This document shows positions 8,559 through 38,732 of a stretch of 64,000 bases of DNA, in pieces. This DNA is from Escherichia coli (GTDB taxonomy: Bacteria; Pseudomonadota; Gammaproteobacteria; Enterobacterales; Enterobacteriaceae): NCBI RefSeq assembly GCF_003334305.1, contig NZ_QOWS01000017.1. One strand, given 5' to 3'. The notes below the pieces were generated by a model. The model was not told the origin of the DNA. It made no database searches and saw nothing but the letters and a program-made list of their open reading frames with translations. The stretch's first letter is position 1. Each line of letters opens with the position of its first letter. The position numbers and the translations under genes are program-made.

Positions 8559-8559
8559 T

Positions 8560-9125: not shown

Positions 9126-9165
9126 TAGGGTAATTACATAGGTATGAGTTAATAAAAGGCGGCTC

Positions 9166-9189
9166 TAAATGCTGCCTTTTATTTTGCCC
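9166..9189 (+). terminator. weak intrinsic terminator or attenuator
   Basis: AGGCGGC-tctaaat-GCTGCCT stem with one G-U pair, followed by TTTTATTTT. Confidence 0.4.
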
Positions 9190-9247
9190 GTTATGCAACT
9201 TAAAAGTTGTATTTCTTACTTTAAAAAAGGTAACAAGGTTTATATAA

Positions 9248-9460
9248 ATGTTGTTTTTAAACGATAAAGAGCAAATCATCAAGTATAAAGATGAAATGCT
9301 GAAAATTAATCCACAAATTACCGAAATGGTAGCTAAATACGCTGGGTGTTCTGTCGAGGAAGTAGAAAGATGTGTTGAAAAATATTTTTCTCCTTCTACT
9401 CCGTCTACACCTTCCCTTAATGAATTAATCAAATTAAAAGCTAAGGAGATTACTAAATGA
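9248..9460 (+). CDS. hypothetical protein (70 aa)
   Basis: ATG with AAGG upstream; stop overlaps the start of the next gene (ATGA). Confidence 0.5.
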   Translation: MLFLNDKEQIIKYKDEMLKINPQITEMVAKYAGCSVEEVERCVEKYFSPSTPSTPSLNELIKLKAKEITK

Positions 9461-9819
9461 TTATTGATTTAGACACTCTGTTTCCAGTTAGAAAGACTTT
9501 CACAGATATTGTAAGTTATTGTACTGATCCGTTTGCCTCTGTAGAAAGCAAGGTTTTTGCTTCTCTTCCTGCTGATGTTGAGTGCGGCGACTTGATCACC
9601 AGTACTGGCGCTAAATATGAATCAGGAGATGATATCTATGTTGTTATGAGTGAATTTGTAACGGCTGGAGAAAACAAGCCTGTAGATGTGCTACGTAGTA
9701 ATGCTGGTCTTGTCTGCATCAAAGCTGATGCGCTGAATGCTGTAAGTGAAGCAGCAAAAACAGCATTAATTAAAAAAGGCTTCCAGCTTGAAGGGTTCCA
9801 TTCTGTTTTCACTTCTTAA
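9457..9819 (+). CDS. hypothetical protein (120 aa)
   Basis: AAGGAG RBS; translationally coupled to the upstream ORF. Confidence 0.55.
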   Translation: MIIDLDTLFPVRKTFTDIVSYCTDPFASVESKVFASLPADVECGDLITSTGAKYESGDDIYVVMSEFVTAGENKPVDVLRSNAGLVCIKADALNAVSEAAKTALIKKGFQLEGFHSVFTS

Positions 9820-9837
9820 TAAAAGGAATAATAATAA

Positions 9838-10869: not shown

Positions 10870-10887
10870 TATTTTAACGTGTAATAG

Positions 10888-10925
10888 AGGCGTGGCGTGA
10901 ATAACACGCTTCGCCTTTTTTTATT
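10888..10925 (+). terminator. rho-independent terminator
   Basis: Nested hairpin AGGCG-tg-GCGTG-aataa-CACGC-tt-CGCCT followed by a T-rich run. Confidence 0.65.
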
Positions 10926-10955
10926 TATTTTTAAATTTTGAGAGGTGATTAAAAT

Positions 10956-11159
10956 ATGGAAGTGATTCTGAAATCAAAAAATGGTGTACACGTTTATTTA
11001 GATGCTAATGATTCAAGAGGCTTGTTAAATCTGAAATATCTATGTTCTCTCTTGGATGTTCCATATGAAGGCGTAAAAGCCCGAATGTTCAGATTAAACG
11101 AGAGTATTGATCAAGCTCTACACCATTTCTTAAGCAAAGAAGGTGGTAAAAATGATTAA
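10956..11159 (+). CDS. hypothetical protein (67 aa)
   Basis: GAGAGGTGA RBS; 15 bp upstream of the 612-aa gene. Confidence 0.45.
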   Translation: MEVILKSKNGVHVYLDANDSRGLLNLKYLCSLLDVPYEGVKARMFRLNESIDQALHHFLSKEGGKND

Positions 11160-11173
11160 TAAGGGGATTTTAA

Positions 11174-13012: not shown

Positions 13013-13046
13013 TTCCCGCCATAACATTACAAGGAAAATTATTATT

Positions 13047-13760
13047 ATGGCGACCGCCGGGATTTTAACCATACGTGCAGCAAATACTCCAGAACAACAC
13101 GTTCAGGCTGTTTACAAAGCAGAACAAGATATAAATTCTACAAAAAACGAAAATAGCAAAGCTAATAAAACAAAAGGAGAGAACGGATTTGCTATTGTTA
13201 CCAGTGGCTTGGCATCTTCTGGCAATGACGTTTATGAAAATTATATGGCCCTGGCCTTTGACAGTGTAGACGATGTGAACGTGAGACGTTCGGCAGATGT
13301 CACAAGCTACCCCGTAGAAAATGGTGCTACTGTGTCTGATCACGTTCAAATTAAAAACAATAAGTTTTCTCTTAAAGGAAGGATCACTGAAACACCGATT
13401 AAAAGCGATCCTGGCTTGTTAAAGAGTGCAGGGGTGAACGGGAACAGAAGATCATTAGCCATAGACTACTTGAATCAGATTATGGACAGTAGACAGCCTT
13501 TTCTTCTTGTTACAGAAAATAAAACTTTTGAGAACGTTGTTTTAACAGGCATCGAATACACAGAAGAGGCAAGCGAATCCCTGGTATTTGATCTTAGCTT
13601 TGAGCAGATCAGATTAGTTTCTTATGGCACTGTATCCACTATTGCACTTAAAACACAACCATCTAAGAACATCGGGGCGAATATGAAAAAACGTGTTAAC
13701 ACTGAAAAATCAAGTAGTGAAGGTGAAGACACTATTACTCCTGCCTTTAAGCAGAAATAG
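13047..13760 (+). CDS. hypothetical protein (237 aa)
   Basis: AAGGA RBS; last gene of the + strand operon, convergent with the integrase. Confidence 0.6.
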   Translation: MATAGILTIRAANTPEQHVQAVYKAEQDINSTKNENSKANKTKGENGFAIVTSGLASSGNDVYENYMALAFDSVDDVNVRRSADVTSYPVENGATVSDHVQIKNNKFSLKGRITETPIKSDPGLLKSAGVNGNRRSLAIDYLNQIMDSRQPFLLVTENKTFENVVLTGIEYTEEASESLVFDLSFEQIRLVSYGTVSTIALKTQPSKNIGANMKKRVNTEKSSSEGEDTITPAFKQK

Positions 13761-13803
13761 CCGTAAACGCCTCTAAAACGCTCTGTAACGATGTAATTAT
13801 AAA

Positions 13804-13840
13804 AGAGGCTGCCAATCTATGTTGAAGCCTCTTTATTGTG
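13804..13840. terminator. bidirectional terminator between convergent operon and integrase
   Basis: AGAGGCT-N15-AGCCTCT hairpin flanked by T-rich runs on both strands. Confidence 0.5.
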
Positions 13841-13841
13841 T

Positions 13842-15176
13842 TTATGGCGTTGTTTTACGCCTTAAATTTGATTTTTTATTGATTGATAAGCCTTTCTCTA
13901 TTTCAGGGTAGCGTAGAAGCTCAATATAGTTTTTAAGCTCTACTGGAGAAGCTGCATTCTTGCTATATGTGCGGAATGTCTCTGTATTGCCGCGTGTATG
14001 GCCCAGGAGAAGGGCGATCCTGTCTTCTGGAATTTGATTTCGATCAAGAAGCTGTGCTACTCCGTGTCTCAGAGAATGAAACACTTTCCTTTCTGTTCCC
14101 TTTTCCCCTAAAGCCTTTCGTTTAGCTCTTGTAAATCTCTGCGTGTGCCACGTGGAACGTTTACCATCAGCACGCTCTGTAATGCTGGCGTGATAGAACA
14201 AAAAGCCATTATGAGGCTTTTCACGCAGCGACAACACCAACGGAGTGATAAGGCTATGTACAGGCACAACACGTGCCGCAGCTTTCGTTTTTCCCTGTGT
14301 GATTTCAAAACACAGCACACCTTCGATCTCTTTCACATCGTCTATTGTGAGACTTGCTATCTCATTGATCCGCATACCTGTATATAAACCGATAAGACAC
14401 AAAGCCATCATTTCTTTGTTTTCTGCTGAATTACCGGAAAATACTTGCAACACCTGCAATAGCTCTTTGTTAGAAAATGCCTCGTAGCTCTCTCTACTTT
14501 GTGCCACATCAAGCCTATGCCCTCGCCAGGGGGAGAGCGCCCTTTCTGGCGCATCGTGGTAACGTGATGAAGCTAACTCCCATAGCTGGGCTATTGGGCT
14601 GATATAATTTGCAATTGATTGTTGTGAAAGAGTTTTTTGCATGTGTTCTATCCAGCCTGTAACAGTGGTGCGGCTCACATCTTGCAATGCAATATCAGGC
14701 TTTTTACGGTAGGAGAGAAACATCTCTACCGCTTTTCTTGCCTTAGCTAAAGTGGCTGGCTTCTTCTTCGTGCTGTTAATTGTCAGGTAGATTTCAAGAA
14801 TTTTAAGCAATGACGGACACGAAGACGCTGTATCTTGCATTCTGGTAGCTGTTTTGGCGTATTTAGCCTTACTGCGTAACAGCTCCAGCGTGTTCTCTAT
14901 TGTGCTGTTTACAGGGGCGACACTCTCCCGTAGGCAATGGTATTCATCTGCAATCTGATCACGCTTTCTACGTGCAACACGAAGATTATTTGTGTGTAGA
15001 CTTCTGACAAACGTCCTTTTTCCTTCAAAAAAGGGCTGCATATACACAGGCAGCGTGATCCTTAAATAGTAGTTACCGTAAGAATCACAGATTAAGTATT
15101 GGTTAGGCTTGTATCTCATAAAATCTCCGGCTAAAGTGTCGGAGCGTTTGTAATGTGAAAATTGATTGTAACGCAT
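13842..15176 (-). CDS. tyrosine-type site-specific integrase
   Basis: Box I GMRINE, box II HSLRHG, LLGH, and a C-terminal tyrosine in TFRTYS; ATG at 15176 (a TTG at 15206 gives the 454-aa track ORF); sits directly inside the right att copy. Confidence 0.85.
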   Translation of the reverse strand: MRYNQFSHYKRSDTLAGDFMRYKPNQYLICDSYGNYYLRITLPVYMQPFFEGKRTFVRSLHTNNLRVARRKRDQIADEYHCLRESVAPVNSTIENTLELLRSKAKYAKTATRMQDTASSCPSLLKILEIYLTINSTKKKPATLAKARKAVEMFLSYRKKPDIALQDVSRTTVTGWIEHMQKTLSQQSIANYISPIAQLWELASSRYHDAPERALSPWRGHRLDVAQSRESYEAFSNKELLQVLQVFSGNSAENKEMMALCLIGLYTGMRINEIASLTIDDVKEIEGVLCFEITQGKTKAAARVVPVHSLITPLVLSLREKPHNGFLFYHASITERADGKRSTWHTQRFTRAKRKALGEKGTERKVFHSLRHGVAQLLDRNQIPEDRIALLLGHTRGNTETFRTYSKNAASPVELKNYIELLRYPEIEKGLSINKKSNLRRKTTP

Positions 15177-15218
15177 AGAAAATGATAATTTTTCTATAAG
15201 ATTCAATCAATTAGTAAT

Positions 15219-15279
15219 GGTCGTAGGTGATGGCATTAACACGAGATTAATCGAGTGTTTTACTCCTATTATCGCACCA
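15219..15279 (+). pseudogene. tRNA-Thr 3'-half remnant (ptwF-like) containing the right att core copy
   Basis: GGTCGTAGGT, then a 33-nt unrelated insert, then ACTCCTATTATCG-CACCA; not a foldable tRNA. Confidence 0.55.
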
Positions 15280-21630: not shown

Positions 21631-21644
21631 TGCATTGAATGATA

Positions 21645-21672
21645 AAAATGGCGCAAATACAGCGCCATTTTT
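21645..21672 (+). terminator. rho-independent terminator after yagU
   Basis: GGCGC-aaataca-GCGCC hairpin followed by ATTTTTA. Confidence 0.55.
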
Positions 21673-21877
21673 ATAGGTTAAAAACATTGCTTTTTATATT
21701 CTGATGCAGATAGTCAGTGAGTATATCGCGCTACTTCAGGATGATGTAGATCCGAAGAACGCTACAGAAGAGAGGCATTGTTGCTGGCAAATAGAAGAAG
21801 TATCGGGTTTTGTTACCCCTGAAAAACGAAGCCCCGCTATTATCGCTGGCGGGGCATTGCAATTAATTATTGTATGT

Positions 21878-22519: not shown

Positions 22520-23230
22520 TTAGTCCGCCGAAGGGGGCTTAGCCGGACAGGAATCGCTAATCTTAATGAATTTGTCGTTATAGACCAGATAATGATTCCC
22601 CGGCTGACGTAACTCAGGCTGATGAACCACGTCTCCCGGACGTAGATACCAGGCATCGCCTTCCTCTTCGGTCGAATCACATCCTGGCTTAATCAGTAGC
22701 TTAAACCATGTGTTGCCAGTGTTACTTACCGTTCCTGTCACCTTGTCGAAGGACCATTTAAACTGAACCTGACGTGGTCGTACTACCAGAATGGTATCCA
22801 TCACCACCACCGGCTCCGTGCTGACCTCGCCGCCGGTTGGGCTACGTCTTGTCTGGTTACGAGTGGGGACTTCGCGAAATGAGACCCGGTAGTAGCGCTC
22901 GCGGTTATCCCGTGGACCATGATAGTAAAATTTAAAATACTCGCTCTCACCAGCCTGCAACGCCAGTTGGCGGGGGGCGAAAAGCAGTTCACCATCCACC
23001 GGTCGGGTGCGCAATTCACTGCTGCCCGGGCTATCAATAGCACTGATGGCAATACGGTATATCCGTGCGCTTTTGTTGTTATTCACTACACGTTTGCTGA
23101 CAAAGTCAGTCTCGGACGGCAGCGAAAATGTCAGATTGCCGACCGAAATCGCCTGTGTCAAAGGTGCCGCCAGCATACAGACCGCTGTCAGCAGGGCTTT
23201 AGTTAATGTTACGCCACGTCGCCTGAACAT
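22520..23230 (-). CDS. ecpE: E. coli common pilus chaperone EcpE
   Basis: Start taken at MFRRRG (236 aa) with signal peptide; last gene of the ecp operon. Confidence 0.85.
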
Positions 23231-24842
23231 GAATCTCTCCTGAAGCGCTGACTTCGCCAAACCAGCCGTTATCATCTACCGTACGCAGCGAAATGGCGTT
23301 ATCCATTGGAATCGAAAATTTGACTGTGGTCTTATCCATCTGCCCCACTTCGCCAGAGATATCAGTCCACGGTGTGGTCAACCACAGCGCATCGGTCATA
23401 TCCCGCCAGCTATCATCGCACCCGGCATCGTAGGTTTTTGTAGCTCCGTTGCGGGTAATAAAGGAAAGTGTCGCCGGGAACGGTACTTTCGCCTTACCGT
23501 CATCGGAGCTGAAGACACAATAGGAGCGCCCGCCAATCACCTGCGCGGGTCCGGTCACCTTGATCAGCACTTCGTCGGCAGCTGTTTTACCGCTGGTGGT
23601 TACGATATAGCCGAAATCGAGTGCCGACTCGCCGCTGCCAACATATCCCTCCCGCGACGGTGTCTGAGTATATTCATCGGAGATAATACTGATGCTGAAA
23701 TCACGGGGTTTGATAATCAGCGTGTTGGAGGTAGAAAATTCATACCAGCCAGACTCCGGTGATGTGGTGTTCTGAAAGCGAAAGTTGAATAGATCTTTGG
23801 TGTTGATATCGCTGATCCCGAGGTTCACCATCTGCTTAAAGAAGTTGCTCGAGAAGAAAACATAGATCGAGTCTGCGCTCTTCATCTCGTTGAAGGTGTA
23901 GTAATAGGCGGTATTGCTCACCGGTTTCCATGAACTGCCATTCAGACTGAACTGCATATCGTACGCCCCGACGGCCGAGGCTAACGACGAGTTGGCGATC
24001 GCCGGGAATATATGGATTGAGGTGTTGCTGAGTCCGTTTGTTTGCAGGGTATAGTTGACCATCTTACAACTTAATCCTGAAAGGCTGCCGATGGTCTGTG
24101 TCCGGCAGTCGGCGTTCCCTTCGCCCAGAGTCGGTACTCCGTCGCTGTTGATAAATACCTCCGCCAGCGAGTGGGTATTTATTAACCGCAGATTTGCTGC
24201 TTTCGTATGGGTGACGTTGCGAACATACCAGTTGCCGGTGGCCTGATCCTTACAGCGTGCGCCGCTGCTGGCGTCATAGTTCACAGAGGTCTGGCAGGCA
24301 TTGATGGTCATTGTAAAGCTGCTGCCGACGGGCATTTGTTGCAGATACTGGTAAAACGCGTCTGACAACATGCCGTGCATCCACTTCGCGCCGCCGCTGG
24401 TCACCGTCGCGCCATAAAATCCACTGGCGTCGGTGGTTTGCGGCAGGATAAGACTGGTGGTCATATTACACCCAGCGTACCAGTTGATGCAGCGCAAGCC
24501 AGTTAAAGGAGATGAAACTGGTGAATTTTCCAGCCACATATCAAACTTCCAGTTGGTATAAAGGCCGGTGTTGTAACCGTTATCAATGTAGCCGAGGCTT
24601 TGCTGATAGATGGTTCCTGAACCAGTGTATTTTAAACCGGTCCAGCGGTTGGCACCGGTCAGGCGCGGATCCAGCGCCCCGCCAGGAGTGACGAAAAAGT
24701 TGTCGTCTGAGTTGTTTTCGACAAACACAAACTCGCGTGCCGGTGCATCCGCCCAGGTTGTTTTGCTCACTGCCGCTCTGAGCTCAGTTACTGGCCAGAT
24801 TAGCGCGAAAATTATCATCGTTATTAGTAGGTTAACTCTCAT
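23199..24842 (-). CDS. ecpD: E. coli common pilus tip adhesin EcpD
   Basis: 547 aa with signal peptide; operon order. Confidence 0.9.
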
Positions 24843-27357
24843 TCTCTTCTCCTGTCTGCGTCACCGCCGCCCACGATGAGAGGCCGCTGCAGACCACATC
24901 ACCGACCCAGACGGCACCGCGCGCCTGGTTGAGTTCCAGTGCCACTTCGCAGGTTTTATTGCCACTGTAGCGAAAATCGATAGTGGGATATTTCTTATCC
25001 ACGTCCATGACAAACTCGCCGTTTTCATCGGTTCGGGTTCGGCCGATATGGTTGTTAATCCGTGCGTTAGCCAGCAGTGTGCCGTCTTCCGCACGGATAC
25101 GACCGGAGACGGTAACCATCTGCTTCACCTCTGGCTCAATGACAGCGACATTGCCTGGATAGAGAGTCAGATGGCTTTTGCGGCCGCTGACGATATCGTA
25201 GCTGTCGAGTGAGTTTTTGCTGTTCTGTAACTCCACCTCATATCTTCCATAGGGAGAGAGCGGGAGATAGTTACGCTTGCCGTTAAGCGGGAAAATCCGC
25301 CCGTTGATTTTGGCGCTGATCTGACCGTCGTCCTCCAGCCCGGTGTTGAATATCACCCCAGCGTTGCCATCAGTCCGCCCGCTGGCAGCGATGTTTTTAC
25401 CCTGCCAGCCGACGCTGCCATTGGCGGTCAAGTTGGTATTGATGTAGCCGTCCGCCGCGCTATTGACGTTCAGCGTTCCGCTGGCGTAACGAGCGTCGAA
25501 CTGTGCATACGCCCCACCGCTGAGGGTTTTGTCATCACCGGTATCGCCGGAGATGGCACGTGACAGATTGGCACCAACAGTGCGAATGGTTCCTTCATCA
25601 AACTGTTTGCGTGCTGACAGGTTTGCCATGGTGTAGCCGTTTTGATGGGTCATCCCTGCGCTAAACCAGTTGCCCAGTGGTAGCGAGAGATCGAGAGCGA
25701 TATATTTCCCTGTATTGGCGTTGCTGTCGCCGTTGTTATAGCGCTGAATACCGGCCCGCAGGCCAAGCGAACCAAAGGTACCGCTGTAGACATTTTGATA
25801 GTAATCTGCCGTGTAATAATGGCTGTTGTAACGGCGGTCATCATTGTAGCTGATGCTGAATGTGCCCAGCTTCGACCACAGTGAGTTCAGGTTGAGTGTG
25901 CCGCCGATTGCACGGTTGTCGGCATCGCTACGTCGCAATTGATTGCCAATGCGGGTTTTTTCCTGGTTAACCCACAGCGAACTAAAGCCTCCCGGTAGAG
26001 TGGCGCTGATGCTGCCGATGCTGCTCCATGAGCTGTCACTGGCCAGCATATTTTGCAGGTTAACGTTGATCGCCCCCCCAAGCGGCAGCGTCAGACGGGT
26101 TTCACCCACCGCCTGATTATCGTATCCATATCCCGTTGCCGCCCAGCTAAGCGTACTCAATGAGCCGGAGGTCGAGGCACCTGCTAGCCAACTCTCTTTA
26201 GCTGGTCGCGTCTTTTTCCCGTTTTCCGACCAGCGATCCATATGAAAGCTACCGCCCCATACCTGCCACGCCAGTGGTGCACCGACGCCGCGCCCCCGGC
26301 TAAACAGCTTATTGACCCGCTGGGGGCGTTTGCTGATCACGCGACCGTTAACGATCACCTCAACTTCCACATCGTAAATCCCGTACGGTAGACCCCGGGT
26401 ATCCACTTCATGATTGCCCATAGTGAAGTTCTGAACGCTTAGTAGCCGCCCATCACGGGTGAGATGTACTTCGCCCGCCGCCGGTAAAAAGGCGATCACT
26501 GGCGTGGCTGACTGGCTGCTGTCGAAGATGGTGGAGCTGGCCTGGTTTCCCCAGGAAAGGCCGTAAATCTTCCCTGCTGAAATGGCGGTCATCGGCCCTA
26601 AGGACTGCAAGTTCCAGGTGTCGAGCATTCCACCGGCAAATCGGTGACCGGCAAAATCGCGTTCATACATCGCTTTATATAATTCACTGTCCTGTTGACC
26701 GCTACCGATCCCGTACAGCGAGCCGTCGAGCACCACATGATGTTCGCGCAGCGCAGTAACGTTATTCAGCGACAGATAGCTGGATGTGTTGCTCCCGCCG
26801 TTACGCAACTGGTTGTTATAGACGCCCAAGTTATAGCTCAGATTACTGCTGAGGGTGTTAACACTGGACTGCCCGATGTCTTCGCTACGTGAGCGTAGTA
26901 CGGTGCCCAGCGCTTCGCGCTTGACCACCAGCTGCAGCAGCAGTTGGCGCAAGCTGAGATCCAGCTGCGCGTTGTCAGTCAGGGGGATGGTAAGGGCCTC
27001 ATTGAACGGGGCGTTGGCCAGAGCCATCAGCTGCTGTCGAGTTTGTTCGCTGACACTGGCGTTATCTTCACTCTCTTCCAGCTGTATTTTCCGGATGCGT
27101 AGCTGTCCATCATCCAGCCAGATAAAAGCGCTGCCGATTCGCTGATCGTCCTGGCGACCCTGGCTACCGGCGAGATGAATATAGAGCGGGACGCTCATGC
27201 CGTCCTGAAGCGCCTGACTGAAGGCCTGCGGAATAATCACCCCACCTATTTGCTGCGCACTTATGTCAGCAGCGCTGGCATCGGGTTGAACGAACAAAAA
27301 GACCATGCCGAAGGCAAACTGGGCTTTCAGTCCTGGGGAGAACCGTCGTAAAGGCAT
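24832..27357 (-). CDS. ecpC: E. coli common pilus usher EcpC
   Basis: 841 aa; operon order. Confidence 0.9.
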
Positions 27358-27382
27358 TGTCGTTATCCATCTGCACAGCTAT

Positions 27383-28051
27383 CTATTTCACGGGAATGAA
27401 CTTATCACCCTGCCAAAGTGCAACCCGTCCTTTGTTATCCGCAGTGTCCACACGGGTAAAACGACGCGACTTGCCCGGCATCAGGTAGTAATTCTCTTTA
27501 CACTCCTTACCGTTGGCGGCTTTCAGGCAAGGGCCGTAGGCGAGGATCCGCAGCGTCGCATTTCCTGTATTTGTCAGGGAGCCGTTGGCGTACTGAAAGT
27601 GGTAGTTCGCCTGGCGAGGGGCGACGACCAGAATGGTGCCGATGCGGGCGGAAGCAGTGGCCACAGCGCTGCGGTTGGCATTATCGCGCTGCGCATCACT
27701 GAGGGCCTGATCAAACCAGACAATGCGGTAGTAGCGCTCTTTTTCATCTGCGGGTCCCTTATAGAAGAAGCGGATCACTTCGCTGGCTTGGGCGGGTAGC
27801 AGCAAGCTGGCGGGAGTGAGTAGCAACTCATCCGGCTTGTCCATTGAGATAACCTGCCCGTCGTCAAGCGGTGAAGAGAGCCGTTCGAGACGGATATTGA
27901 TAAGGCGACCACTGTCGGTACTGTTTTTGATCGTTTTGCTCAGCGTGCTGCTGTCACTGTTCATAAACGATGATATATCGCCGACATCCAGCGCCTGGGC
28001 CGGAGGTATTCCGGAAAACAGCAGAGCGAGAGGCAGAAGGTGCTTTTTCAT
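27383..28051 (-). CDS. ecpB: E. coli common pilus chaperone EcpB
   Basis: 222 aa with signal peptide. Confidence 0.9.
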
Positions 28052-28108
28052 AACAATTCCGTCCAGGAATAAAGCAGGGGGGCTACCCCTGCTGGTACAT
28101 CAGAGAGA

Positions 28109-28696
28109 TTAACTGGTCCAGGTCGCGTCGAACTGTACGCTAACGTCGCCGCTCCAGATGCCTTCCGGTAGAGTGCTGTAATCGGTTACTGCGGTGGTAC
28201 CATTGGTGGTGCCGCTGATGATGGTGAAGGTGAAACCATCCTGTGCGGTGGTACGATTGCTGGCATTGTAACCGTTAGCCAGCGGGCTAAGGTTGCCGCC
28301 CAGTACGCCGTTGGCGGTATCGATCATCACGGTATCGCCAGTTTTTTCGACTGCCGCGCCGTTATAATCCACGCCCACATTCAGTGTGGAACCTGAGGTA
28401 TCCAACTGGGTTAATGTGTTGGTGATAAGACGTGAGGTCAGTTTAAAGGCGGTAGCCGTTGAGTCACCCTCGATAGCCACGTCAAATAGACCTTTCTGTG
28501 AGTTAAAACCTTTAATGCCTTCGGCATACTGGAACGCCAGGCTACCGAGTGGCGTCACAACCAGCTTACTGGTGGTGTCTTTTTTGGCTGTTGCCGACCA
28601 GGTCGCTACAGCCTGAGCTGTTACGTCAGCAGCCTGCGCCACACCCATGCCGGTAAACACCGTTACCAGAGCTATTGCCAGAACCTTTTTTTTCAT
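28109..28696 (-). CDS. ecpA: E. coli common pilus major subunit EcpA (MatB)
   Basis: 195 aa starting [22 protein letters not shown]. Confidence 0.9.
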
Positions 28697-28770
28697 TGCA
28701 TTTCTTCCCGAGTTGAATTGAGGACGTGATGTCCCAGTGAGTCATTTTTTAAAACTAACTTGCCTGGAGT

Positions 28771-29382
<612 letters not shown>

Positions 29383-30399
29383 TTACAGGTGCATTCAGTT
29401 TCCTTAGTAAACCGGAAGTAAATAAGATACGTAGTACATATCAATAAAGGTTAAACGAGATTAAGTTTAATTATTTTCGATTGGGCTTAAATTTATGTTT
29501 TTTTCCCGATGAGTGTCAATATGTGAACGGAAAAGGAATTCAATGGTTAAGTCAATATTTAGAAAAACTGAAAATATTGCTTTTTTGATAAGAAGAAAAA
29601 GACATTTGGTTTCATAAGGTTATTGGCAATATAACGTTCAATTCTTACTTGCATTTTATATTGGTCAGGAACTTTGCCCTGAAGTGTTAGGAATAGTCTT
29701 AATGCGCTGTGTGATGGACTAGTAAAAAAAACAAGTTTTAAGGGTAAGGGATAGAATATAAAACTATAATGAGCTGTCATTGAAGATGATTTGCCAATCA
29801 GTAAGAAATTTTAATGGATTAACATGCCGCACAAAATGGTTATAGGTGTTCATTACAATAAGTGATGGAAAATTGAACGGGCGTATGTACGTCATCTGTT
29901 CGGTAAGACCCCCAAGAGCCAGATTAAGTGAAGTTAAACGAAGGCTGCCAGCTGTCACAGGAACGATGGCCTCTTTGTCAGGGCACTGAGTGCAGTTATC
30001 TGTGCGCGTTACTCTAACTGGCACTCGAACGTCGGCGATGGGCTTACCGGTGGATCAAACTGTTCCTGTGGCGTAAACGTTTTTATGTTAGTACCAACAG
30101 ATTTACCACATTTATCATCTTAACAGTTTGAGTGAAAACGCAGGCTGCGCCGCAAAGGGAGGAGACTGAGTGGCGTGTTCAGTCTAAAAGAGGGTTGATG
30201 CCAGCATACAGGGGCGAAGCTGGTCAACAAGTCAACATTAAGATAATGGAATATTCGGAGAGAAACGTCAGGCAGTTGGCCTCAAATGAACAGGAAGAAT
30301 ATATCCCCAGGAAAATTAATGTTGGTGTTATAAACACACCAACATTAATCCGATCTGATTATTAATCAGACAAATATCGTTAATTCGTCGAATTTTGAA

Positions 30400-30540
30400 T
30401 CAACGTTTTTTCTTACGACCCTGAACGGCCTTAAAACGTGGATTAGATTTACAAATCACATACAACCGTCCTTTTCGCTTCACAATCTGACAGTCTTGAT
30501 GGCGTTCTTTTGCGGTACGCAGAGAGTTAAGAACTTTCAT
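30400..30540 (-). CDS. rpmJ2: ribosomal protein L36 paralog
   Basis: 46-aa [49 protein letters not shown] translated by hand; start overlaps the rpmE2 stop. Confidence 0.8.
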
Positions 30541-30806
30541 TACGCCCCCTTTTTCGTGCTAACAAAACGACCAAAACGTTGGGTGAACCGTGCAACATTT
30601 CCTTCTGATGCCACTGTTCTCAGCTTCCCTGTATAGAACGGGTGCGATTTCGAAGAGACATCAATTGTTACGTACGGATACGTTACGCCATCCAGCTCAA
30701 TCTCACGGTCTGTTTTGATAGTCGAGCCGATTTTAAAGTACTCATCAACACTGGTGTCGTGGAACACCACAGTACGATACTCAGGATGGATATTGGGCTT
30801 CATCAT
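30540..30806 (-). CDS. rpmE2: ribosomal protein L31 paralog (zinc-independent)
   Basis: 88 aa starting [18 protein letters not shown]. Confidence 0.85.
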
Positions 30807-30820
30807 TTTTACCTGTTATG

Positions 30821-30843
30821 TTATAACATAACCATAAAGATAC
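30821..30843. promoter_or_regulatory. Zur box upstream of rpmE2-rpmJ2
   Basis: Perfect palindrome ATGTTATAACAT at 30827-30838 within TGTTATGTTATAACATAACC, about 20 bp upstream of the rpmE2 start. Confidence 0.6.
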
Positions 30844-32382
30844 ATGCTCATCCGGATCATTTCAACACCCAATCCCTGTGACTCTTTGTGGATGTGGAAT
30901 TTTCGCAACGGGGAACTCTGGCATTGTTAGCAGCCATTGGTGACGCTCCCATAAACGCCTGGATGAGTGATTGATGATGGTTTTGCTGAGAGTATGGATT
31001 TTTCGACAATGGAGGTTATCTCCACTTTACTGGCCGATGATTTATCGCAGTATGATTGATTACCTGACAGCGTGTATTCCTCTCCCACGGATATAATAAT
31101 TACTTACAAAAAGGGAGAGGATGCATATTTTAAATATCACTGAAGTGAACAGTTTATTGCCGTTATTAATAGAAATGGAGAAATAAATAGGCGTATTCTA
31201 CAATTGCGACAAAAACAACGATATTAATCAGTTTATGACTGATTTGTTGTACTTTATTCTCTTTCATTGGTACTTCCTCGCTTTAAAAAAGAGCGCACTT
31301 CGTAAGTGCCCTTATATAAATAACGAGTTTGGTCAACCAATTTTTTGACATGTATCACAAATTTGAATAGATGTATTACATCGGCTATCTTTTATTGCAC
31401 CAACGTCATTGATATATGTCGCCTGAAGTCAGTTCCGGGAATGAGTCTGATCTCAAGACTGGCCCAGTCCGGGCGTTGATTGGCGCTGAGGAGCATATCG
31501 CATCTCATCATAATGTCGTATCTCCTGGGGTGTTATACAAGATATCGTTGTTGGTGACCTGGGAGAGGAATTGAGTTCTATTAAACCGTCAACTATGCCG
31601 GATACATACTGGATTACACTGCAGGCACGCCTTACGAGAGAACGTGCCGCAGTGACGGGTTAATTATCTGAAAGAATTTGTGAGGCTGTATCGGTTACTC
31701 ATTGATTTGATAGTTTTACTCTCGGGAGAGTAATAGATATTTAATCTATTAACGGAAACCAGCCAGTTCCTTTCGATGCCTGAATTTGATTCCATAGTTT
31801 ATCCGGAATGGTTAATTCATGAATAAGTTGTGTTCTCGTTCATGAGAAGCATAACGTAAAGGGAAAAGCTCGATTAGACGGCAGGATTTGTCAGGGGTTA
31901 TGAACGAAATTCATAAATCTGTTTGAGTGTTGCGATGGGTAGTGCAAGTTCGAAATCTCCGCAATTTACAGTCCGATGAAGGAAAATGAATATCCATAAA
32001 AAATATATCGATTTATTCTGGCGTATATACCTACTTCGACGTATTTCCAATAGTTGTTAATTAAAGGCAGGCCATTATTATTCACTCTGAATAATGAATT
32101 ATTCACTGTCCGCAGAGTAAAAAATATAACTTAGGTGTCTATTTAATGACTTGCACAAAAAGCTAAATTTTCACCCATAAATAAAAATATAATCCCGCGC
32201 CCAACCACCTGATGAGTGGCTACAGACACTGGATATATTAGGTGGCGGTGCACTTTCTTACATAAAGGTATTTCCTTTTCTGCGGAAAAGGAAATCGGGA
32301 AATCCCCGGTTTTTCTGACAAGCAGACGCCATTATTTGTGTCTGCCTATGTTCGTTAATTCGTTCATCAGGAAATTATCTCA

Positions 32383-35300
32383 ATGTCGCGTTATAAAACA
32401 GGTCATAAACAACCACGATTTCGTTATTCAGTTCTGGCCCGCTGCGTGGCGTGGGCAAATATCTCTGTTCAGGTTCTTTTTCCACTCGCTGTCACCTTTA
32501 CCCCAGTAATGGCGGCACGTGCGCAGCATGCGGTTCAGCCACGGTTGAGCATGGGAAATACTACGGTAACTGCTGATAATAACGTGGAGAAAAATGTCGC
32601 GTCGTTTGCCGCAAATGCCGGGACATTTTTAAGCAGTCAGCCAGATAGCGATGCGACACGTAACTTTATTACCGGAATGGCCACAGCTAAAGCTAACCAG
32701 GAAATACAGGAGTGGCTCGGGAAATATGGTACTGCGCGCGTCAAACTGAATGTCGATAAAGATTTCTCGCTGAAGGATTCTTCGCTGGAAATGCTTTATC
32801 CGATTTATGATACGCCAACAAATATGTTGTTCACTCAGGGAGCAATACATCGTACCGACGATCGTACTCAGTCAAATATTGGTTTTGGCTGGCGTCATTT
32901 TTCAGGAAATGACTGGATGGCGGGGGTGAACACCTTTATCGACCATGATTTATCCCGTAGTCATACCCGCATTGGTGTTGGTGCGGAATACTGGCGCGAT
33001 TATCTGAAACTGAGCGCCAATGGTTATATTCGGGCTTCTGGCTGGAAAAAATCGCCGGATATTGAGGATTATCAGGAACGCCCGGCGAATGGTTGGGATA
33101 TCCGCGCAGAGGGCTATTTACCTGCCTGGCCGCAGCTTGGCGCAAGCCTGATGTATGAACAGTATTATGGCGATGAAGTCGGGCTGTTTGGTAAAGATAA
33201 GCGCCAGAAAGACCCGCATGCTATTTCTGCCGAGGTGACCTATACGCCAGTGCCTCTTCTGACACTGAGCGCCGGGCATAAGCAGGGCAAGAGCGGTGAG
33301 AATGACACTCGCTTTGGCCTGGAAGTTAATTATCGGATTGGCGAACCTCTGGAGAAACAACTCGATACAGACAGCATTCGCGAGCGTCGAATGCTGGCAG
33401 GCAGCCGCTATGACCTGGTTGAGCGTAATAACAACATCGTTCTTGAGTACCGCAAATCTGAAGTGATCCGTATTGCTCTGCCTGAGCGTATTGAAGGTAA
33501 GGGCGGTCAGACACTTTCCCTGGGGCTTGTGGTCAGCAAAGCAACTCACGGACTGAAAAATGTGCAGTGGGAAGCGCCGTCATTACTGGCTGAAGGTGGC
33601 AAAATTACCGGTCAGGGTAGTCAGTGGCAAGTAACGCTCCCGGCTTATCGTCCAGGCAAAGACAATTATTATGCGATTTCTGCGGTTGCCTACGATAACA
33701 AAGGCAATGCCTCAAAACGCGTGCAGACAGAGGTGGTCATTACCGGAGCAGGTATGAGTGCCGATCGCACGGCGTTAACGCTTGACGGTCAGAGCCGTAT
33801 TCAAATGCTTGCTAACGGTAATGAGCAAAGACCGCTGGTGCTGTCTCTGCGCGACGCCGAGGGCCAGCCAGTCACGGGCATGAAAGATCAGATCAAGACT
33901 GAACTAACTTTCAAACCGGCTGGAAATATTGTGACTCGTACCCTGAAGGCCACTAAATCACAGGCAAAGCCAACACTGGGTGAGTTCACCGAAACTGAAG
34001 CCGGGGTGTATCAGTCTGTCTTTACTACCGGAACGCAGTCAGGTGAGGCAACGATTACTGTTAGCGTTGATGGCATGAGCAAAACCGTCACTGCAGAACT
34101 GCGGGCCACGATGATGGATGTGGCAAACTCCACCCTGAGCGCTAACGAGCCGTCAGGTGACGTGGTTGCTGATGGTCAGCAAGCCTATACGTTGACGTTG
34201 ACTGCGGTGGACTCCGAGGGTAATCCGGTGACGGGAGAAGCCAGCCGCTTGCGATTTGTTCCGCAAGACACTAATGGTGTAACCGTTGGTGCCATTTCGG
34301 AAATAAAACCAGGCGTTTACAGCGCCACGGTTTCTTCGACCCGTGCCGGAAACGTTGTTGTGCGTGCTTTCAGCGAGCAGTATCAGCTGGGCACATTACA
34401 ACAAACGCTGAAGTTTGTTGCCGGGCCGCTTGATGCAGCACATTCGTCCATCACCCTGAATCCTGATAAACCGGTGGTTGGCGGTACAGTTACGGCAATC
34501 TGGACGGCAAAAGATGCTAATGACAACCCTGTAACTGGTCTCAATCCGGATGCACCGTCATTATCGGGCGCAGCTGCTGTAGGTTCTACGGCATCAGGCT
34601 GGACGGATAATGGCGACGGGACCTGGACTGCGCAGATTTCTCTCGGCACTACGGCGGGTGAATTAGAGGTTATGCCGAAGCTAAATGGACAGGATGCGGC
34701 AGCGAATGCGGCTAAAGTAACCGTGGTGGCTGATGCGTTATCTTCAGGCCAGTCGACAGTGTCTGTAGCCGCAGATCGCGTAAAAGCAGGCGAAAGCACA
34801 ACCGTGACGCTTATTGCAAAAGATGCACATGGCAACGCTATCAGTGGTCTTTCCCTGTCGGCAAGCCTGACGGGTGCTGCGTCTGAAGGGGCGACTGTTT
34901 CTGGTTGGACCGAAAAAGGTGATGGTTCCTATGTCGCTACGCTGACAACAGGTGGAAAGACGGGTGAGCTTCTCGTCATGCCGCTATTCAACGGCCAGCC
35001 AGCAGCCACCGAAGCCGCGCAGTTGACTGTCATTGCGGGGGAGATGTCATCAGCGAACTCTACGCTTGTTGCTGACAATAAGGCTCCGACCGTCAAAACG
35101 ACGACGAAACTCACCTTCACCGTGAAGGATGCGTACGGGAACCTTGTCACCGGGCTGAAGCCAGATGCACCGCAGTTTAGTGGTGCCGCCAGCACGGGGA
35201 CAGAGCGACCTTCAACAGGAGACTGGACAGAAACAAGTAATGGGGTCTACGTGGCGACCTTGACTCTGGGATCTGCCGCGGGCCAGTTGTCTGTGATGCC

Positions 35301-36636
35301 GCGAGTGAACGGCCAAAATGCCGTTGCTCAGCCACTGGTGCTGAATGTTGCTGGTGACGCATCTAAGGCTGAGATTCGTGATATGACGGTGAAGGTTGAT
35401 AACCAGCTGGCTAATGGACAATCGACTAACCAGGTAACCCTGACCGTTGTGGACACCTATGGTAACCCGTTGCAGGGACAAAATGTGACGCTGACTCTGC
35501 CGAAAGGTGTGACCAGCAAGACGGGGAATACGGTAACAACCGATGCGGCAGGTAAAGCCGACATTGAGCTGATGTCAACGGTTGCCGGGGAACACAGCAT
35601 CACGGCCTCAGTGAATAATGCTCAGAAGACGGTTACGGTGAAATTCAAGGCGGATTTCAGTACCGGTCAGGCGAGTCTGGAGGTTGATAGCGCCGCGCCA
35701 AAAGTAGCAAACGGCAAAGATGCCTTTACGCTGACGGCGACCGTTGAGGATAAAAATGGTAACCCTGTTCCAGGGAGCCTGGTGACCTTTAATCTGCCCC
35801 GGGGTGTCAAGCCGCTTACAGGCGATAATGTCTGGGTGAAAGCCAACGATGAGGGGACAGCAGAGTTGCAGGTGGTTTCAGTGACTGCCGGAACGTATGA
35901 GATCACGGCATCGGCGGGGAATAGCCAGCCTTCGGATACGCAGACTATAACGTTTGTAGCCGATAAGGCTACCGCAACCGTCTCCGGTATTGAGGTGATT
36001 GGCAACTATGCGCTGGCGGACGGCAAAGCCAAACAAACGTATAAAGTTACGGTGACTGATGCCAATAACAATTTGGTGAAAGATAGCGACGTGACGCTGA
36101 CTGCCAGCCCGGCTTCGTTAAACCTGGAACCGAATGGCACTGCGACAACGAATGAGCAAGGGCAGGCTATTTTCACCGCTACCACTACTGTTGCGGCGAC
36201 ATACACACTCAAGGCGCAAGTGAGTCAGACCAACGGTCAGGTATCAACGAAAACTGCCGAATCTAAATTCGTTGCGGATGATAAAAACGCGGTACTCACC
36301 GCATCATCTGATATGCAATCTCTGGTGGCGGATGGGAAATCGACTGCGAAGCTGGAGGTGACACTGATGTCGGCAAACAACCCCGTTGGCGGGAATATGT
36401 GGGTCGACATTCAGACGCCGGAAGGGGTGACGGAGAAGGATTATCAGTTCCTGCCGTCGAAAAATGACCATTTCGTGAGCGGAAAAATCACGCGTAAATT
36501 TAGTACCAGCAAGCCTGGTGTCTATACGTTCACATTTAACGCCCTGACCTATGGCGGGTACGAAATGAAGCCAGTGACGGTGACCATTACCGCGGTGGAT
36601 GCCGATACGGCAAAGGACGAGGAGGCGATGAAATAA
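32383..36636 (+). CDS. fdeC: intimin/invasin-like adhesin with Ig-like repeats, apparently intact
   Basis: 1417 aa; N-terminal MSRYKTGHKQPRFRYSVLARCVAW; position between rpmE2 and ykgA where K-12 carries the disrupted eaeH. Confidence 0.8.
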   Translation: MSRYKTGHKQPRFRYSVLARCVAWANISVQVLFPLAVTFTPVMAARAQHAVQPRLSMGNTTVTADNNVEKNVASFAANAGTFLSSQPDSDATRNFITGMATAKANQEIQEWLGKYGTARVKLNVDKDFSLKDSSLEMLYPIYDTPTNMLFTQGAIHRTDDRTQSNIGFGWRHFSGNDWMAGVNTFIDHDLSRSHTRIGVGAEYWRDYLKLSANGYIRASGWKKSPDIEDYQERPANGWDIRAEGYLPAWPQLGASLMYEQYYGDEVGLFGKDKRQKDPHAISAEVTYTPVPLLTLSAGHKQGKSGENDTRFGLEVNYRIGEPLEKQLDTDSIRERRMLAGSRYDLVERNNNIVLEYRKSEVIRIALPERIEGKGGQTLSLGLVVSKATHGLKNVQWEAPSLLAEGGKITGQGSQWQVTLPAYRPGKDNYYAISAVAYDNKGNASKRVQTEVVITGAGMSADRTALTLDGQSRIQMLANGNEQRPLVLSLRDAEGQPVTGMKDQIKTELTFKPAGNIVTRTLKATKSQAKPTLGEFTETEAGVYQSVFTTGTQSGEATITVSVDGMSKTVTAELRATMMDVANSTLSANEPSGDVVADGQQAYTLTLTAVDSEGNPVTGEASRLRFVPQDTNGVTVGAISEIKPGVYSATVSSTRAGNVVVRAFSEQYQLGTLQQTLKFVAGPLDAAHSSITLNPDKPVVGGTVTAIWTAKDANDNPVTGLNPDAPSLSGAAAVGSTASGWTDNGDGTWTAQISLGTTAGELEVMPKLNGQDAAANAAKVTVVADALSSGQSTVSVAADRVKAGESTTVTLIAKDAHGNAISGLSLSASLTGAASEGATVSGWTEKGDGSYVATLTTGGKTGELLVMPLFNGQPAATEAAQLTVIAGEMSSANSTLVADNKAPTVKTTTKLTFTVKDAYGNLVTGLKPDAPQFSGAASTGTERPSTGDWTETSNGVYVATLTLGSAAGQLSVMPRVNGQNAVAQPLVLNVAGDASKAEIRDMTVKVDNQLANGQSTNQVTLTVVDTYGNPLQGQNVTLTLPKGVTSKTGNTVTTDAAGKADIELMSTVAGEHSITASVNNAQKTVTVKFKADFSTGQASLEVDSAAPKVANGKDAFTLTATVEDKNGNPVPGSLVTFNLPRGVKPLTGDNVWVKANDEGTAELQVVSVTAGTYEITASAGNSQPSDTQTITFVADKATATVSGIEVIGNYALADGKAKQTYKVTVTDANNNLVKDSDVTLTASPASLNLEPNGTATTNEQGQAIFTATTTVAATYTLKAQVSQTNGQVSTKTAESKFVADDKNAVLTASSDMQSLVADGKSTAKLEVTLMSANNPVGGNMWVDIQTPEGVTEKDYQFLPSKNDHFVSGKITRKFSTSKPGVYTFTFNALTYGGYEMKPVTVTITAVDADTAKDEEAMK

Positions 36637-36756
36637 TTTTAAGAATATGAAAGTAACATTCTAATAAACAATAATGGCGTTGACATCTTCAACGCCATTA
36701 TTTATTGAATTTCCTGACAGTAGTCTCGTTATAAATTCATTTAGATATAGCGAAAA

Positions 36757-37647
36757 CTAAACCGGACGAACGGGGATAAAAATTTCGCAAACAACATCAT
36801 TGCTATCCTTTTCTACGAAATCTTCATTGTAATAAAACCGCTCAATATCACTGCCGTTCACTCTGGCTAACCCCCTGGCGGGTAATTCCATCAGATAGAG
36901 GTTTCGCGCCCATTCAGGGTAGTGCTCCCACTCACCTTCATAGCGGAAAGAGGCATACAGTCCTCGGTTAATTGTCCACTCTTTCGGCATCTCTGAATCG
37001 GTTTGTTTGCATACCGTACCGGCAAAAGTTTCAACCGTGAGCAAATCGACCGATTTTGTTGACGGTTCAAACGTGGAGACGAAATAGATATCCGTCTTAA
37101 AATTATTCATACATCTGGCTAAATGATGACGTCGCAGTTTGACTTCTTCATCCGGTGATTTATTCGACACTTCAATGTCATATTTAAATGAGTTGCCAAA
37201 AATAGGTGTCTCAGGAAAATTGACTAATCTACACTCCGTCTTTTGCTGTTGACGTATTAAAAAAGAAGGGAAGATATTTGCGAGATCCCAATAATCACGG
37301 TGGCGGTATTCACGGGGAGAGCAGCCGAATAACTTTTTAAATTCGCGGCTGAATGACTGCTGTGAATCAAAATGCAAAGAGAGTGCAATATCAAGCATAG
37401 ATTTCGCGGTGAGCCGGACAAGAATGGCGGCACGACAAAGCCTTCGTTTGCGAATGTATTCTCCCAAAGGCACATGCATGAAATTTCGGAACAGAAGCTG
37501 GATGTTGCGTCTGCTGTAGCCAGATTTCTGTGCGATATCTTCGATTGAAATAGGGTGCTCAAGATTGCACTCAATCCACTTCAGGAGCTGCTGTAGAATC
37601 TTCTGCCTGATCATCACATTCTCCATTGATTCTTCGTCATATCGCAC
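36757..37647 (-). CDS. ykgA: AraC-family transcriptional regulator
   Basis: 296-aa ORF with AraC-type HTH near the N-terminus; exact start uncertain. Confidence 0.7.
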   Translation of the reverse strand: MRYDEESMENVMIRQKILQQLLKWIECNLEHPISIEDIAQKSGYSRRNIQLLFRNFMHVPLGEYIRKRRLCRAAILVRLTAKSMLDIALSLHFDSQQSFSREFKKLFGCSPREYRHRDYWDLANIFPSFLIRQQQKTECRLVNFPETPIFGNSFKYDIEVSNKSPDEEVKLRRHHLARCMNNFKTDIYFVSTFEPSTKSVDLLTVETFAGTVCKQTDSEMPKEWTINRGLYASFRYEGEWEHYPEWARNLYLMELPARGLARVNGSDIERFYYNEDFVEKDSNDVVCEIFIPVRPV

Positions 37648-37862
37648 ATTTTCGTTATGCCCTGGGCCCTAAGTGTATCAAAAACAGCAAGGGCGAAGGC
37701 AAAAGCACTGGTAGCGTCTGCTTCGTTGTCCCCGAAAATAGAGAGGTTTCAGTCCTGCATTATTAATGAATTTTTTGCATAAGTGATATCAAAATCCACG
37801 TACTAATTTGAGGTTACGTTTTAACGTAGACTCATTGTTCATGCCTAATGGAGGGACTGACA

Positions 37863-38732
37863 GTGGAATTTTCCGTATTAAGTAACAATCTGAAAATGTC
37901 GATGATGGGATTTGGTGTTTTTCAGGTTACCGATAAAAACGTGTGCAAACAGTCAGTGTTGAACGCTATCCGCACAGGTTATCGACTCATCGACACTGCA
38001 GCGGTATACGGTAATGAAGATGCCGTCGGTGAAGCCGTTCGTGAAGCTATATCTGAAGGTTTATGTACCCGAGATGAGTTATTTATAACGTCTAAATTGT
38101 GGGTGCAGGATATGTTGAATCAGGATACGGCAGCAGCAGGTATTGAAGCATCATTAAAAAAATCGGGACTAGAGTACTTCGACCTCTATTTATTGCACCA
38201 GGCTATGCGCGATTATTTCAGTGCGTGGCGTGCACTCGAAGATGCCTATGAAGAGGGCAAATTAAAAGCAATTGGGGTTTCCAATTTCTATCCTCATGTT
38301 CTGGCGAACTTTTGTGAAACGGTAAGAGTTAAACCGATGGTCAACCAGGTCGAGTTGCATCCCTATTTTGCCCAACCAGAGGCGCTGGCAACCATGAAGT
38401 ATTATAACGTGCAGCCTGAAGCATGGGCTCCGTTAGGTGGTGGACGACATAAACCCTTTGAAAATAATCTGCTTCAGAGTATTGCAGATGCCCATCAAAA
38501 ATCGATTTCTCAAGTCATTCTGCGTTGGAATATTCAACGGGGAGTGGTCGTTATTCCGAAATCGACACATCAACAGCGTATCGAAGAAAATTTTGCTATC
38601 TGGGATTTCTCACTGACAGAGAAAGAAATGGCACAAATTAGTTCGCTTGATTTGGGTTATGTTGGGGAGTCGGTAAAACATTTTAATCCTGAATTTGTTC
38701 GTGGTTGTCTTGCTGTAAAAATACATGATTGA
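37863..38732 (+). CDS. aldo-keto reductase
   Basis: GTG start 7 nt after GGAGGG; AKR-like N-terminus MSMMGFGVFQ and conserved IDTAAVYGNE; the track ORF begins at an upstream ATG (37848) lacking an RBS. Confidence 0.8.
   Translation: MEFSVLSNNLKMSMMGFGVFQVTDKNVCKQSVLNAIRTGYRLIDTAAVYGNEDAVGEAVREAISEGLCTRDELFITSKLWVQDMLNQDTAAAGIEASLKKSGLEYFDLYLLHQAMRDYFSAWRALEDAYEEGKLKAIGVSNFYPHVLANFCETVRVKPMVNQVELHPYFAQPEALATMKYYNVQPEAWAPLGGGRHKPFENNLLQSIADAHQKSISQVILRWNIQRGVVVIPKSTHQQRIEENFAIWDFSLTEKEMAQISSLDLGYVGESVKHFNPEFVRGCLAVKIHD

Follow-up and report, generated by a model that had tools for sequence, protein, structure and literature searches.

The eaeH pseudogene of Escherichia coli K-12 is a textbook annotation. 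At the corresponding position the stretch analysed here (the window, 64,000 nucleotides of one E. coli contig) has a long open reading frame, and the question is whether this is an intact gene and which adhesin it encodes. A sequence-only reading had claimed a single unbroken frame encoding 1417 amino acids, with an invasin/intimin-type organisation and Ig-like regions, free of IS elements and frameshifts, where K-12 has a disrupted eaeH.

An intact reading frame and its identification

The reading frame is listed first, followed by the region within it that corresponds to a crystallised FdeC fragment.

32383..36636, plus strand: fdeC (eaeH) coding sequence, 1417 amino acids plus stop, 149.7 kDa (ORF list and translation)
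34165..35406, plus strand: region equivalent to PDB 4E9L, aa 595-1008 (phmmer)

The frame starts with ATG, has an AGGA Shine-Dalgarno sequence about 10 nt upstream, and contains no internal stop in either the ORF listing or the translation. The window is identical over all 64000 bases to positions 1017174-1081173 of NZ_CP028767.1, from E. coli strain A7 (orangutan faeces), where the frame is annotated by RefSeq as WP_000092602.1, "inverse autotransporter adhesin FdeC" (gene fdeC). AMSHJX01 and A7 both carry a gene 100% identical to it, and in both its start and stop are those of the RefSeq fdeC annotation and its product is WP_000092602.1. AMSHJX01 was ruled out as a match to the whole window, since the similarity is limited to window positions 15262-64000, at 99.58%.

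The single unbroken frame is therefore borne out by the ORF list, the translation and the RefSeq start and stop. The absence of an IS element or frameshift was confirmed with five intact alleles of fdeC (1416-1418 aa), to which the protein is collinear. Alignment to intact alleles, which had been suggested as the check for a frameshift, gave only a 1-aa indel and, at the C-terminal tail, a length difference of 2 aa. Five RefSeq FdeC alleles are 90.7-97.8% identical in amino acids to the protein, and residues 595-1008 align end-to-end with the crystallised fragment 4E9L (phmmer, E 9e-244; E 1e-242 for the PDB match), with 391 of 414 residues (94.4%) identical. A frame of 4.25 kb with domain matches of this strength (E 6.5e-109 for IAT_beta, in addition to the 4E9L match) is far from a chance occurrence.

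The RefSeq annotation, the synteny and the identity to the FdeC crystal fragment together make it virtually certain that the frame is an intact allele of fdeC/eaeH, an inverse autotransporter (type Ve secretion) adhesin of E. coli, and in view of the solved structures and the annotation we regard the identity as settled. In the NCBIfam search no equivalog cut-off was reached. This says nothing against FdeC, because there was no FdeC-specific model among the matches. The top match was the IatC N-terminal model, which raises the reading that the gene is another inverse-autotransporter paralogue of E. coli (YeeJ, IatA-D, SinH or YchO). The scores are, however, well short of the respective cut-offs, at 652 bits against 2400 for IatC, 304 against 999 for SinH and 285 against 508 for YchO, and the YeeJ model was absent among the NCBIfam matches of the protein. 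The locus is that of eaeH/fdeC, and the RefSeq name is fdeC. Synteny and near-identity to FdeC refute the paralogue reading, to which we give almost no credence.

Domain organisation

Matches to Pfam, which was run on two overlapping pieces of the protein, and to known structures divide FdeC as follows.

32383..32523, plus strand: predicted long Sec signal peptide, aa 1-47 (hydropathy scan)
32608..33432, plus strand: inverse-autotransporter beta-barrel translocator, aa 76-350 (Pfam IAT_beta, PF11924)
33454..33804, plus strand: first Ig-like domain outside the cell, counterpart of intimin D00, aa 358-474 (6TQD match)
33802..36594, plus strand: nine more Ig-like (Big_1 / Invasin_D3) domains, aa 474-1404 (Pfam)

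In the hydropathy scan the N-terminus has a basic n-region, a hydrophobic core at about aa 19-45 and an A-R-A|Q motif at aa 45-47, and by the AXA rule the signal peptide would be cleaved after A-R-A. PF11924 is covered from model position 3 to 279 of 279 (E 6.5e-109). The barrel structures of invasin and intimin, 4E1T and 4E1S, match aa 113-357 (E 1e-82 and 1e-70), and the intimin D00-D0 structure 6TQD matches aa 358-474 (E 3e-12). The invasin/intimin-type organisation with Ig-like regions was thus correctly read, as an N-terminal barrel with some 10 Ig-like domains after it. The length, the mass and the series of barrel, D00-like domain and nine Big_1/Invasin_D3 domains fit the known description of FdeC, for which 10 Big domains are reported (Heinz 2016, PMC4943183).

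The same layout is shared by intimin (Eae) and invasin proper, ie a Tir- or integrin-binding protein with a lectin-like tip, and the barrel matches quoted above, at E 1e-70 to 1e-82, are to those proteins. The NCBIfam intimin model NF033627 also matches, but at 379.5 bits it is far under its cut-off of 1400. Pfam found neither a LysM nor a C-terminal (C-type-lectin-like) lectin domain in the protein, 10 Ig-like domains are present where 4 would be expected, and the surroundings are ecp, ykg and rcl genes rather than the LEE island. With the defining domains missing and in this genomic context, the frame has a negligible chance of being intimin or invasin, and that reading is refuted in favour of FdeC.

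The Ig modules recur in the DNA with a periodicity of about 306-309 nt. In pairwise comparison the most similar are Ig3-5 and Ig6-7, at 41-44% amino acid identity. The formation of in-frame length variants by recombination between modules was considered and rejected, since the modules are only 16-44% identical in amino acids and long DNA repeats are absent; the 528-bp deletion in AHB21 is flanked by a microhomology of only 2 nt.

The K-12 remnant

The fdeC locus is the same as that of the K-12 remnant, and the sequences on either side align collinearly with K-12 at 98.9-99.2% identity. As shown by blastn and by the junction sequences, the K-12 lineage (BW25113) keeps fdeC nt 1-876, at 98.5% identity, after which IS3 follows.

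33259..36953, no strand: segment missing from the K-12 lineage, with IS3 in its place (blastn against BW25113, junctions and annotation)

The disruption of eaeH in K-12 is therefore real, but it is not a simple interruption by an IS element. The 3695 bp lost comprise fdeC nt 877-4254, an intergenic hairpin and, from the convergent helix-turn-helix (HTH) gene, the 3' end, so that the end of the barrel and the entire passenger are gone and the HTH gene is truncated. The K-12 pseudogene (b0297, 295 aa) has the same gene start and the same upstream neighbours as fdeC, and its frame runs on past residue 292, within the barrel, for 3 codons of IS3. An additional 725 bp is missing in K-12 from the aldo/keto reductase gene. 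The K-12 eaeH is the leftover of fdeC after an IS3-associated deletion of 3.7 kb.

Flanking sequences

In the annotated A7 and AMSHJX01 sequences fdeC lies between the ykgMO/ykgR side and a convergent HTH regulator, an aldo-keto reductase and rclCBA; ecp, ykg and rcl genes surround it.

31831..32382, plus strand: A+T-rich upstream intergenic region (GC 0.35 at 31800-32199)
32054-32081, plus strand: candidate -35/-10 (consensus scan)
36670..36702, no strand: palindromic hairpin with a 14-bp stem and T-runs flanking on both strands
36757..37614, minus strand: convergent helix-turn-helix regulator gene (ykgA position), whole here and C-terminally truncated in K-12

The upstream intergenic region is presumed to be the promoter and silencing region. 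The consensus scan upstream of fdeC found sites no more numerous than in shuffled sequence, and for that reason no promoter is claimed. The hairpin is a candidate bidirectional intrinsic terminator between the convergent fdeC and HTH genes.

Variation among alleles

Near-full-length fdeC was found in 4571 of 5426 complete E. coli genomes, the gene being lost or truncated in roughly 16%. A complete fdeC has been reported in 67% of 126 genomes and in 83% of ECOR strains (PMC6714894). The present allele, taken at a nucleotide identity of at least 99%, accounts for 88 of 5078 matching records and is thus a minority allele.

Alleles hardly differ in the translocator and the proximal domains, the barrel being 98-100% conserved, and the surface-distal domains are the most variable, with identity down to 71% of amino acids per domain. 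Ig6-Ig9 differ from other alleles at 6-29% of amino acids and the 13-residue tail at up to 54%, in a mosaic pattern with distal blocks shared patchily between strains. Synonymous divergence reaches 0.47 in Ig6-Ig9, compared with about 0.04-0.2 in the translocator. In the informative comparisons the translocator has a dN/dS of 0.06-0.10 and the distal domains one of no more than 0.30, and these values, 0.06-0.30 along the gene, indicate purifying selection on a functional gene. Positive selection on the distal domains is unsupported: wherever dS is high enough for the ratio to be informative, dN/dS stays at or below 0.30, and the two ratios above this, 0.64 and 1.02, were obtained in segments whose dS is just 0.006-0.007.

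These values also bear on whether the gene, although intact, is cryptic in the source strain, ie transcriptionally silent or decaying and contributing nothing. The A+T-rich upstream region and the proportion of genomes that have lost the gene would agree with this, as would the scant expression of fdeC reported in vitro (PMC3324786) and the reported repression by H-NS; for regulation by H-NS and temperature, Heinz 2016 (PMC4943183) cites Easton et al. 2014. Against it stand the purifying selection over the entire gene, the conservation of the barrel and the retention of the full-length gene in most genomes, and silencing in culture reflects regulation and is no loss of function. A cryptic gene is thus unlikely, and a functional fdeC is preferred.

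It is a long shot that Ig6-Ig9 represent old recombining allelic classes, maintained by balancing or host-specific selection and differing in ligand or antigenic specificity, with the orangutan- and panda-associated minority allele as one class. FdeC subtypes, with 60-95% conservation, were already depicted by Heinz 2016 (PMC4943183), so that only a functional difference between classes would be new. The comparison of alleles, a minor by-product, is relevant to FdeC-based vaccines.

Probable function

The steps that follow are drawn from published work on FdeC orthologues. The predicted long N-terminal signal peptide would direct passage through Sec, and BAM, assisted by TAM, would then place the 12-stranded barrel (aa ~76-350) in the outer membrane. 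For the FdeC of CFT073, BAM/TAM-dependent assembly in the outer membrane and surface exposure of the passenger have been reported (PMC4943183). The C-terminal passenger would leave through the barrel and form a surface rod of about 10 Ig-like domains. This rod would probably attach the bacterium to epithelial cells and bind collagens I, III, V and VI, as the FdeC of IHE3034 does (PMC3324786), and may also promote cell-cell aggregation and biofilm formation. Expression would be expected to be low in laboratory culture, under H-NS, and to be induced by contact with host cells. The ligand specificity of the present allele is one we would infer, as its distal domains differ from those of other alleles at up to ~29% of amino acids.

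FdeC is a published vaccine-candidate adhesin carried by most E. coli, and as a vaccine antigen it protects against UTI (PMC3324786). The same study describes a protein of 1416 aa, a pseudogene in K-12, binding to collagen and cells, and the solved structure of a fragment. Earlier papers (Nesta 2012; Heinz 2016; Goh 2019) already cover the intact gene and its pseudogene in K-12, the adhesion and binding to collagen, TAM-assisted assembly and the subtypes with variable distal domains. The gene is an ordinary one, there is nothing new in the intact fdeC or in its K-12 remnant, and the discovery value is small.

Comparison with known systems

Known FdeC (ECOK1_0290 of IHE3034, c0415 of CFT073 and EaeH of ETEC H10407) is found at the same locus. 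It has 1416 aa compared with 1417 here, and shares the IAT barrel and the 10 Big domains, and a signal peptide like that of FdeC is predicted here; like the present protein it is without LysM and without a lectin tip. The differences between the two are allelic only.

Intimin (Eae) and Yersinia invasin are also of type Ve, with a homologous barrel and an Ig-like passenger, and the first passenger domain of FdeC is D00-like. Both, however, have a periplasmic LysM and a C-terminal lectin-like receptor-binding domain, and FdeC has neither. FdeC has 10 Ig-like domains compared with 4 in intimin, and the genomic context differs. The reported ligand of FdeC is collagen, whereas those of intimin and invasin are Tir or integrin.

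Identity of the reading frame

The gene fdeC (eaeH) occupies 32383..36636 on the + strand as a single open reading frame of 1417 codons, with an ATG start and no internal stops. The remaining frames that overlap it, on both strands, would encode 88-150 aa and are unsupported. The sequence-only reading had described an uninterrupted 1417-aa frame with invasin/intimin-type organisation and Ig-like repeats, and both parts are borne out: the translation is stop-free, and an inverse-autotransporter barrel is followed by ten Ig-like domains. When 5426 complete E. coli genomes were searched with megablast, a 100% identical gene was found in strain AMSHJX01 (giant panda), whose match to the window begins at 15262 with an identity of 99.58%. 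Strain A7, from orangutan faeces, equals the window at 64000/64000 positions (NZ_CP028767.1:1017174-1081173). In both strains RefSeq labels the gene fdeC, inverse autotransporter adhesin FdeC, WP_000092602.1, with identical start and stop. The feature is the known, widespread gene fdeC in its usual intact state.

Protein architecture

Domains of the window protein
aa 76-350: inverse-autotransporter beta-barrel, full-length domain (Pfam, E 6.5e-109)
aa 358-474: D00-like domain (match to intimin D00-D0 structure 6TQD)
between aa 474 and 1404: nine Invasin_D3/Big_1 Ig-like domains (Pfam)

The D00-like domain and the nine found by Pfam give ten Ig-like domains, which is the published number for FdeC, and the calculated mass of 149.7 kDa agrees with the reported 150 kDa (PMC4943183). 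The crystallised FdeC fragment 4E9L aligns end to end with aa 595-1008 (E 9e-244), 391/414 residues being identical. The N-terminus combines a basic stretch with a hydrophobic core and has the motif A-R-A|Q at residues 45-48, features that suggest a putative long Sec signal peptide. Pfam detected neither a LysM domain in the short segment before the barrel nor a C-terminal lectin-like domain. Pairwise identity among the Ig modules is 16-44%, closest among Ig3-5 and Ig6-7, and a weak DNA periodicity of 306-309 nt is seen in Ig3-5; the modules are old duplicates.

Other members of the family were considered and rejected. Intimin is excluded by its NCBIfam model, which scores 379 bits where the cut-off is 1400, by the absence of LysM and lectin domains, and by a genomic context that is not LEE. 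The NCBIfam scores for IatC, SinH and YchO all fall far under their cut-offs, and no YeeJ model is among the NCBIfam matches.

The K-12 locus

Window segments compared with K-12 (blastn)
24382-33258: present in K-12, 98.85% identity
33259-36953 (3695 bp): missing from K-12, IS3 in place
36954-37878: present again in K-12
37879-38603 (725 bp): also missing from K-12

The further claim that the K-12 copy is disrupted also holds. At the same locus BW25113 keeps 876 bp from the 5' end, which its annotation calls an incomplete inverse-autotransporter beta-domain protein. Next come IS3, an HTH gene shortened at its C-terminal end and an aldo/keto reductase gene shortened at its N-terminal end. In K-12 the frame continues as far as residue 292 (...TYTPVPL), then enters IS3 and stops there after TQQ, giving the 295-aa eaeH product; the remnant therefore ends within the barrel and lacks the entire passenger. 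This state is an IS3-associated deletion, not a simple insertion.

A second K-12-specific loss, separate from the IS3-associated deletion, takes the 725 bp at 37879-38603 out of the aldo/keto reductase gene that lies beyond the HTH regulator on the downstream side; in BW25113 approximately 38 bp of unrelated sequence takes their place.

Allelic variation

At 99% identity or more the window allele has only 88 matching records, with 3479 in the 90-95% band. Five intact alleles were compared. Protein identity is 94-100% in the signal/pre-barrel segment, barrel, D00 and Ig1-2, falling to 71-94% in Ig6-Ig9 and to 46-85% in the 13-residue tail. The O45:H2 allele is nearly identical to the window in Ig6-9 (dS 0.007) and divergent in Ig3-5 (dS 0.21), and the MA11 allele differs little in Ig1-2 (dS 0.006) and is divergent in other parts; the pattern is mosaic. 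The translocator has a dN/dS ratio of 0.06-0.10, and for the distal domains the ratio is 0.23-0.30 in comparisons with an informative dS. The results indicate that the gene is functional and under purifying selection and that its old alleles have recombined within the gene, rather than positive selection or decay.

The bloodstream isolate AHB21 (NZ_OZ547226.1 1001-4729) has an in-frame deletion of 176 aa (aa 373-548, most of D00 and Ig1), with a junction microhomology of just 2 nt. For the resulting 1242-aa protein, RefSeq drops the name FdeC.

Flanking regions

A palindrome at 36670-36702, with a 14-bp stem and T-runs on either side, sits in the gap between fdeC and the HTH gene convergent with it and looks like a candidate bidirectional terminator. 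The 552-bp upstream intergenic region is A+T-rich (GC 0.35 over 31800-32199 vs 0.52-0.56 within the gene). Sites found there by a promoter scan were no commoner than in shuffled sequence, and therefore no promoter is claimed.

The upstream neighbour varies by lineage (loci L008, L010 and L011 from other strains vs window 31382-31831). In MA11, DETEC-P881 and 2016C-3878 the neighbour, about 565 bp upstream of fdeC, is an aldo/keto reductase gene, and similarity to the window begins only about 551 bp before the ATG; in A7, K-12, O45:H2 and MB1 the ykgR side is found upstream. Surface adhesins are densely packed around fdeC. Less than 30 kb away are the ecpRABCDE common-pilus operon (22520-29313), the autotransporter HyxB (46715-49012) and EhaA, an autotransporter adhesin of 1327 aa (59221-63204), each annotated intact in the strain.

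Other features of the window

A phage-related integrative element has inserted at the thrW tRNA-Thr site, and positions 1-15279 are its right-hand part.

Genes of the element
53-373: DUF5375 protein
388-2721: P4-alpha-like primase-helicase
6975-7718: replication-initiator-like regulator
9838-10869: major head protein
11174-13012: tape-measure-like protein
13047-13760: tail-fiber/endolysin-like protein
13842-15119, minus strand: tyrosine integrase

It terminates at 15262-15279, where the 3' end of tRNA-Thr recurs as a degenerate 18-nt copy, one G short, and ARAGORN finds no intact tRNA within the 64-kb window. In AMSHJX01 the site is without the element and tRNA-Thr is intact. At least 80% of 1-15279 is present in only 6/5426 genomes. 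The approximately 3.8 kb at 2722-6554 has a low coding density: its sole annotated gene is a 52-aa frame (3809-3967), and no PHROG matches the longest other frame (127 aa, 4311-4694). In other strains, related elements (genome matches H32-H36) have a second integrase and an RNA-directed DNA polymerase annotated somewhere in the matched stretch. The region may be a hotspot for variable cargo or defence, the decayed remains of one, or non-coding DNA.

The tyrosine DNA invertase gene ipbA (hbiF/fimX; 51035-51655, - strand), beside hyxR, is a pseudogene with a nonsense codon in place of Arg161 (DYLGH-stop-NIQH); the AMSHJX01 protein is intact at 187 aa, and the adjacent hyxR-hyxA-hyxB are annotated intact. 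IS009 (RF02111, 202 bits; 21636-21835, +), in the yagU-ykgJ intergenic region, is the sole Rfam match over the gathering score in the window.

Proposed mechanism and comparison with published FdeC

Identity and architecture are shown for the window gene itself, and the mechanism is borrowed from work on orthologues. By analogy, export would be Sec-dependent, and BAM, assisted by TAM, would insert the N-terminal barrel into the outer membrane; when tamA is mutated, FdeC assembly is reduced and the barrel fragment becomes protease-sensitive (PMC4943183). The C-terminal passenger would then pass out through the barrel and form a rod of Ig-like domains, and may bind epithelial cells and collagens I, III, V and VI, as published for FdeC with a Kd around 1e-8 M (PMC3324786). 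The same study reports induction upon host-cell contact, a contribution to kidney and bladder colonisation, and efficacy as a vaccine antigen. H-NS repression and temperature control are attributed to Easton et al. 2014, as cited in Heinz 2016 (PMC4943183).

A match to fdeC, nearly always chromosomal and single-copy, is present in 5073/5426 complete genomes and covers at least 80% of the gene in 4571. Plasmids carry 11/5088 matching places, and the O157:H7 strain Vac_07.1 keeps only the first 144 bp. Our counts agree with the published prevalence, given as about 99% of ExPEC and 83% of commensal/faecal strains (PMC3324786), and as 67% of 126 complete genomes and 83% of ECOR strains (PMC6714894). 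Nor is the allelic variation new, because Heinz et al. 2016 (PMC4943183) already depict FdeC subtypes, with colours along the rod marking identities of 95% down to 60%.
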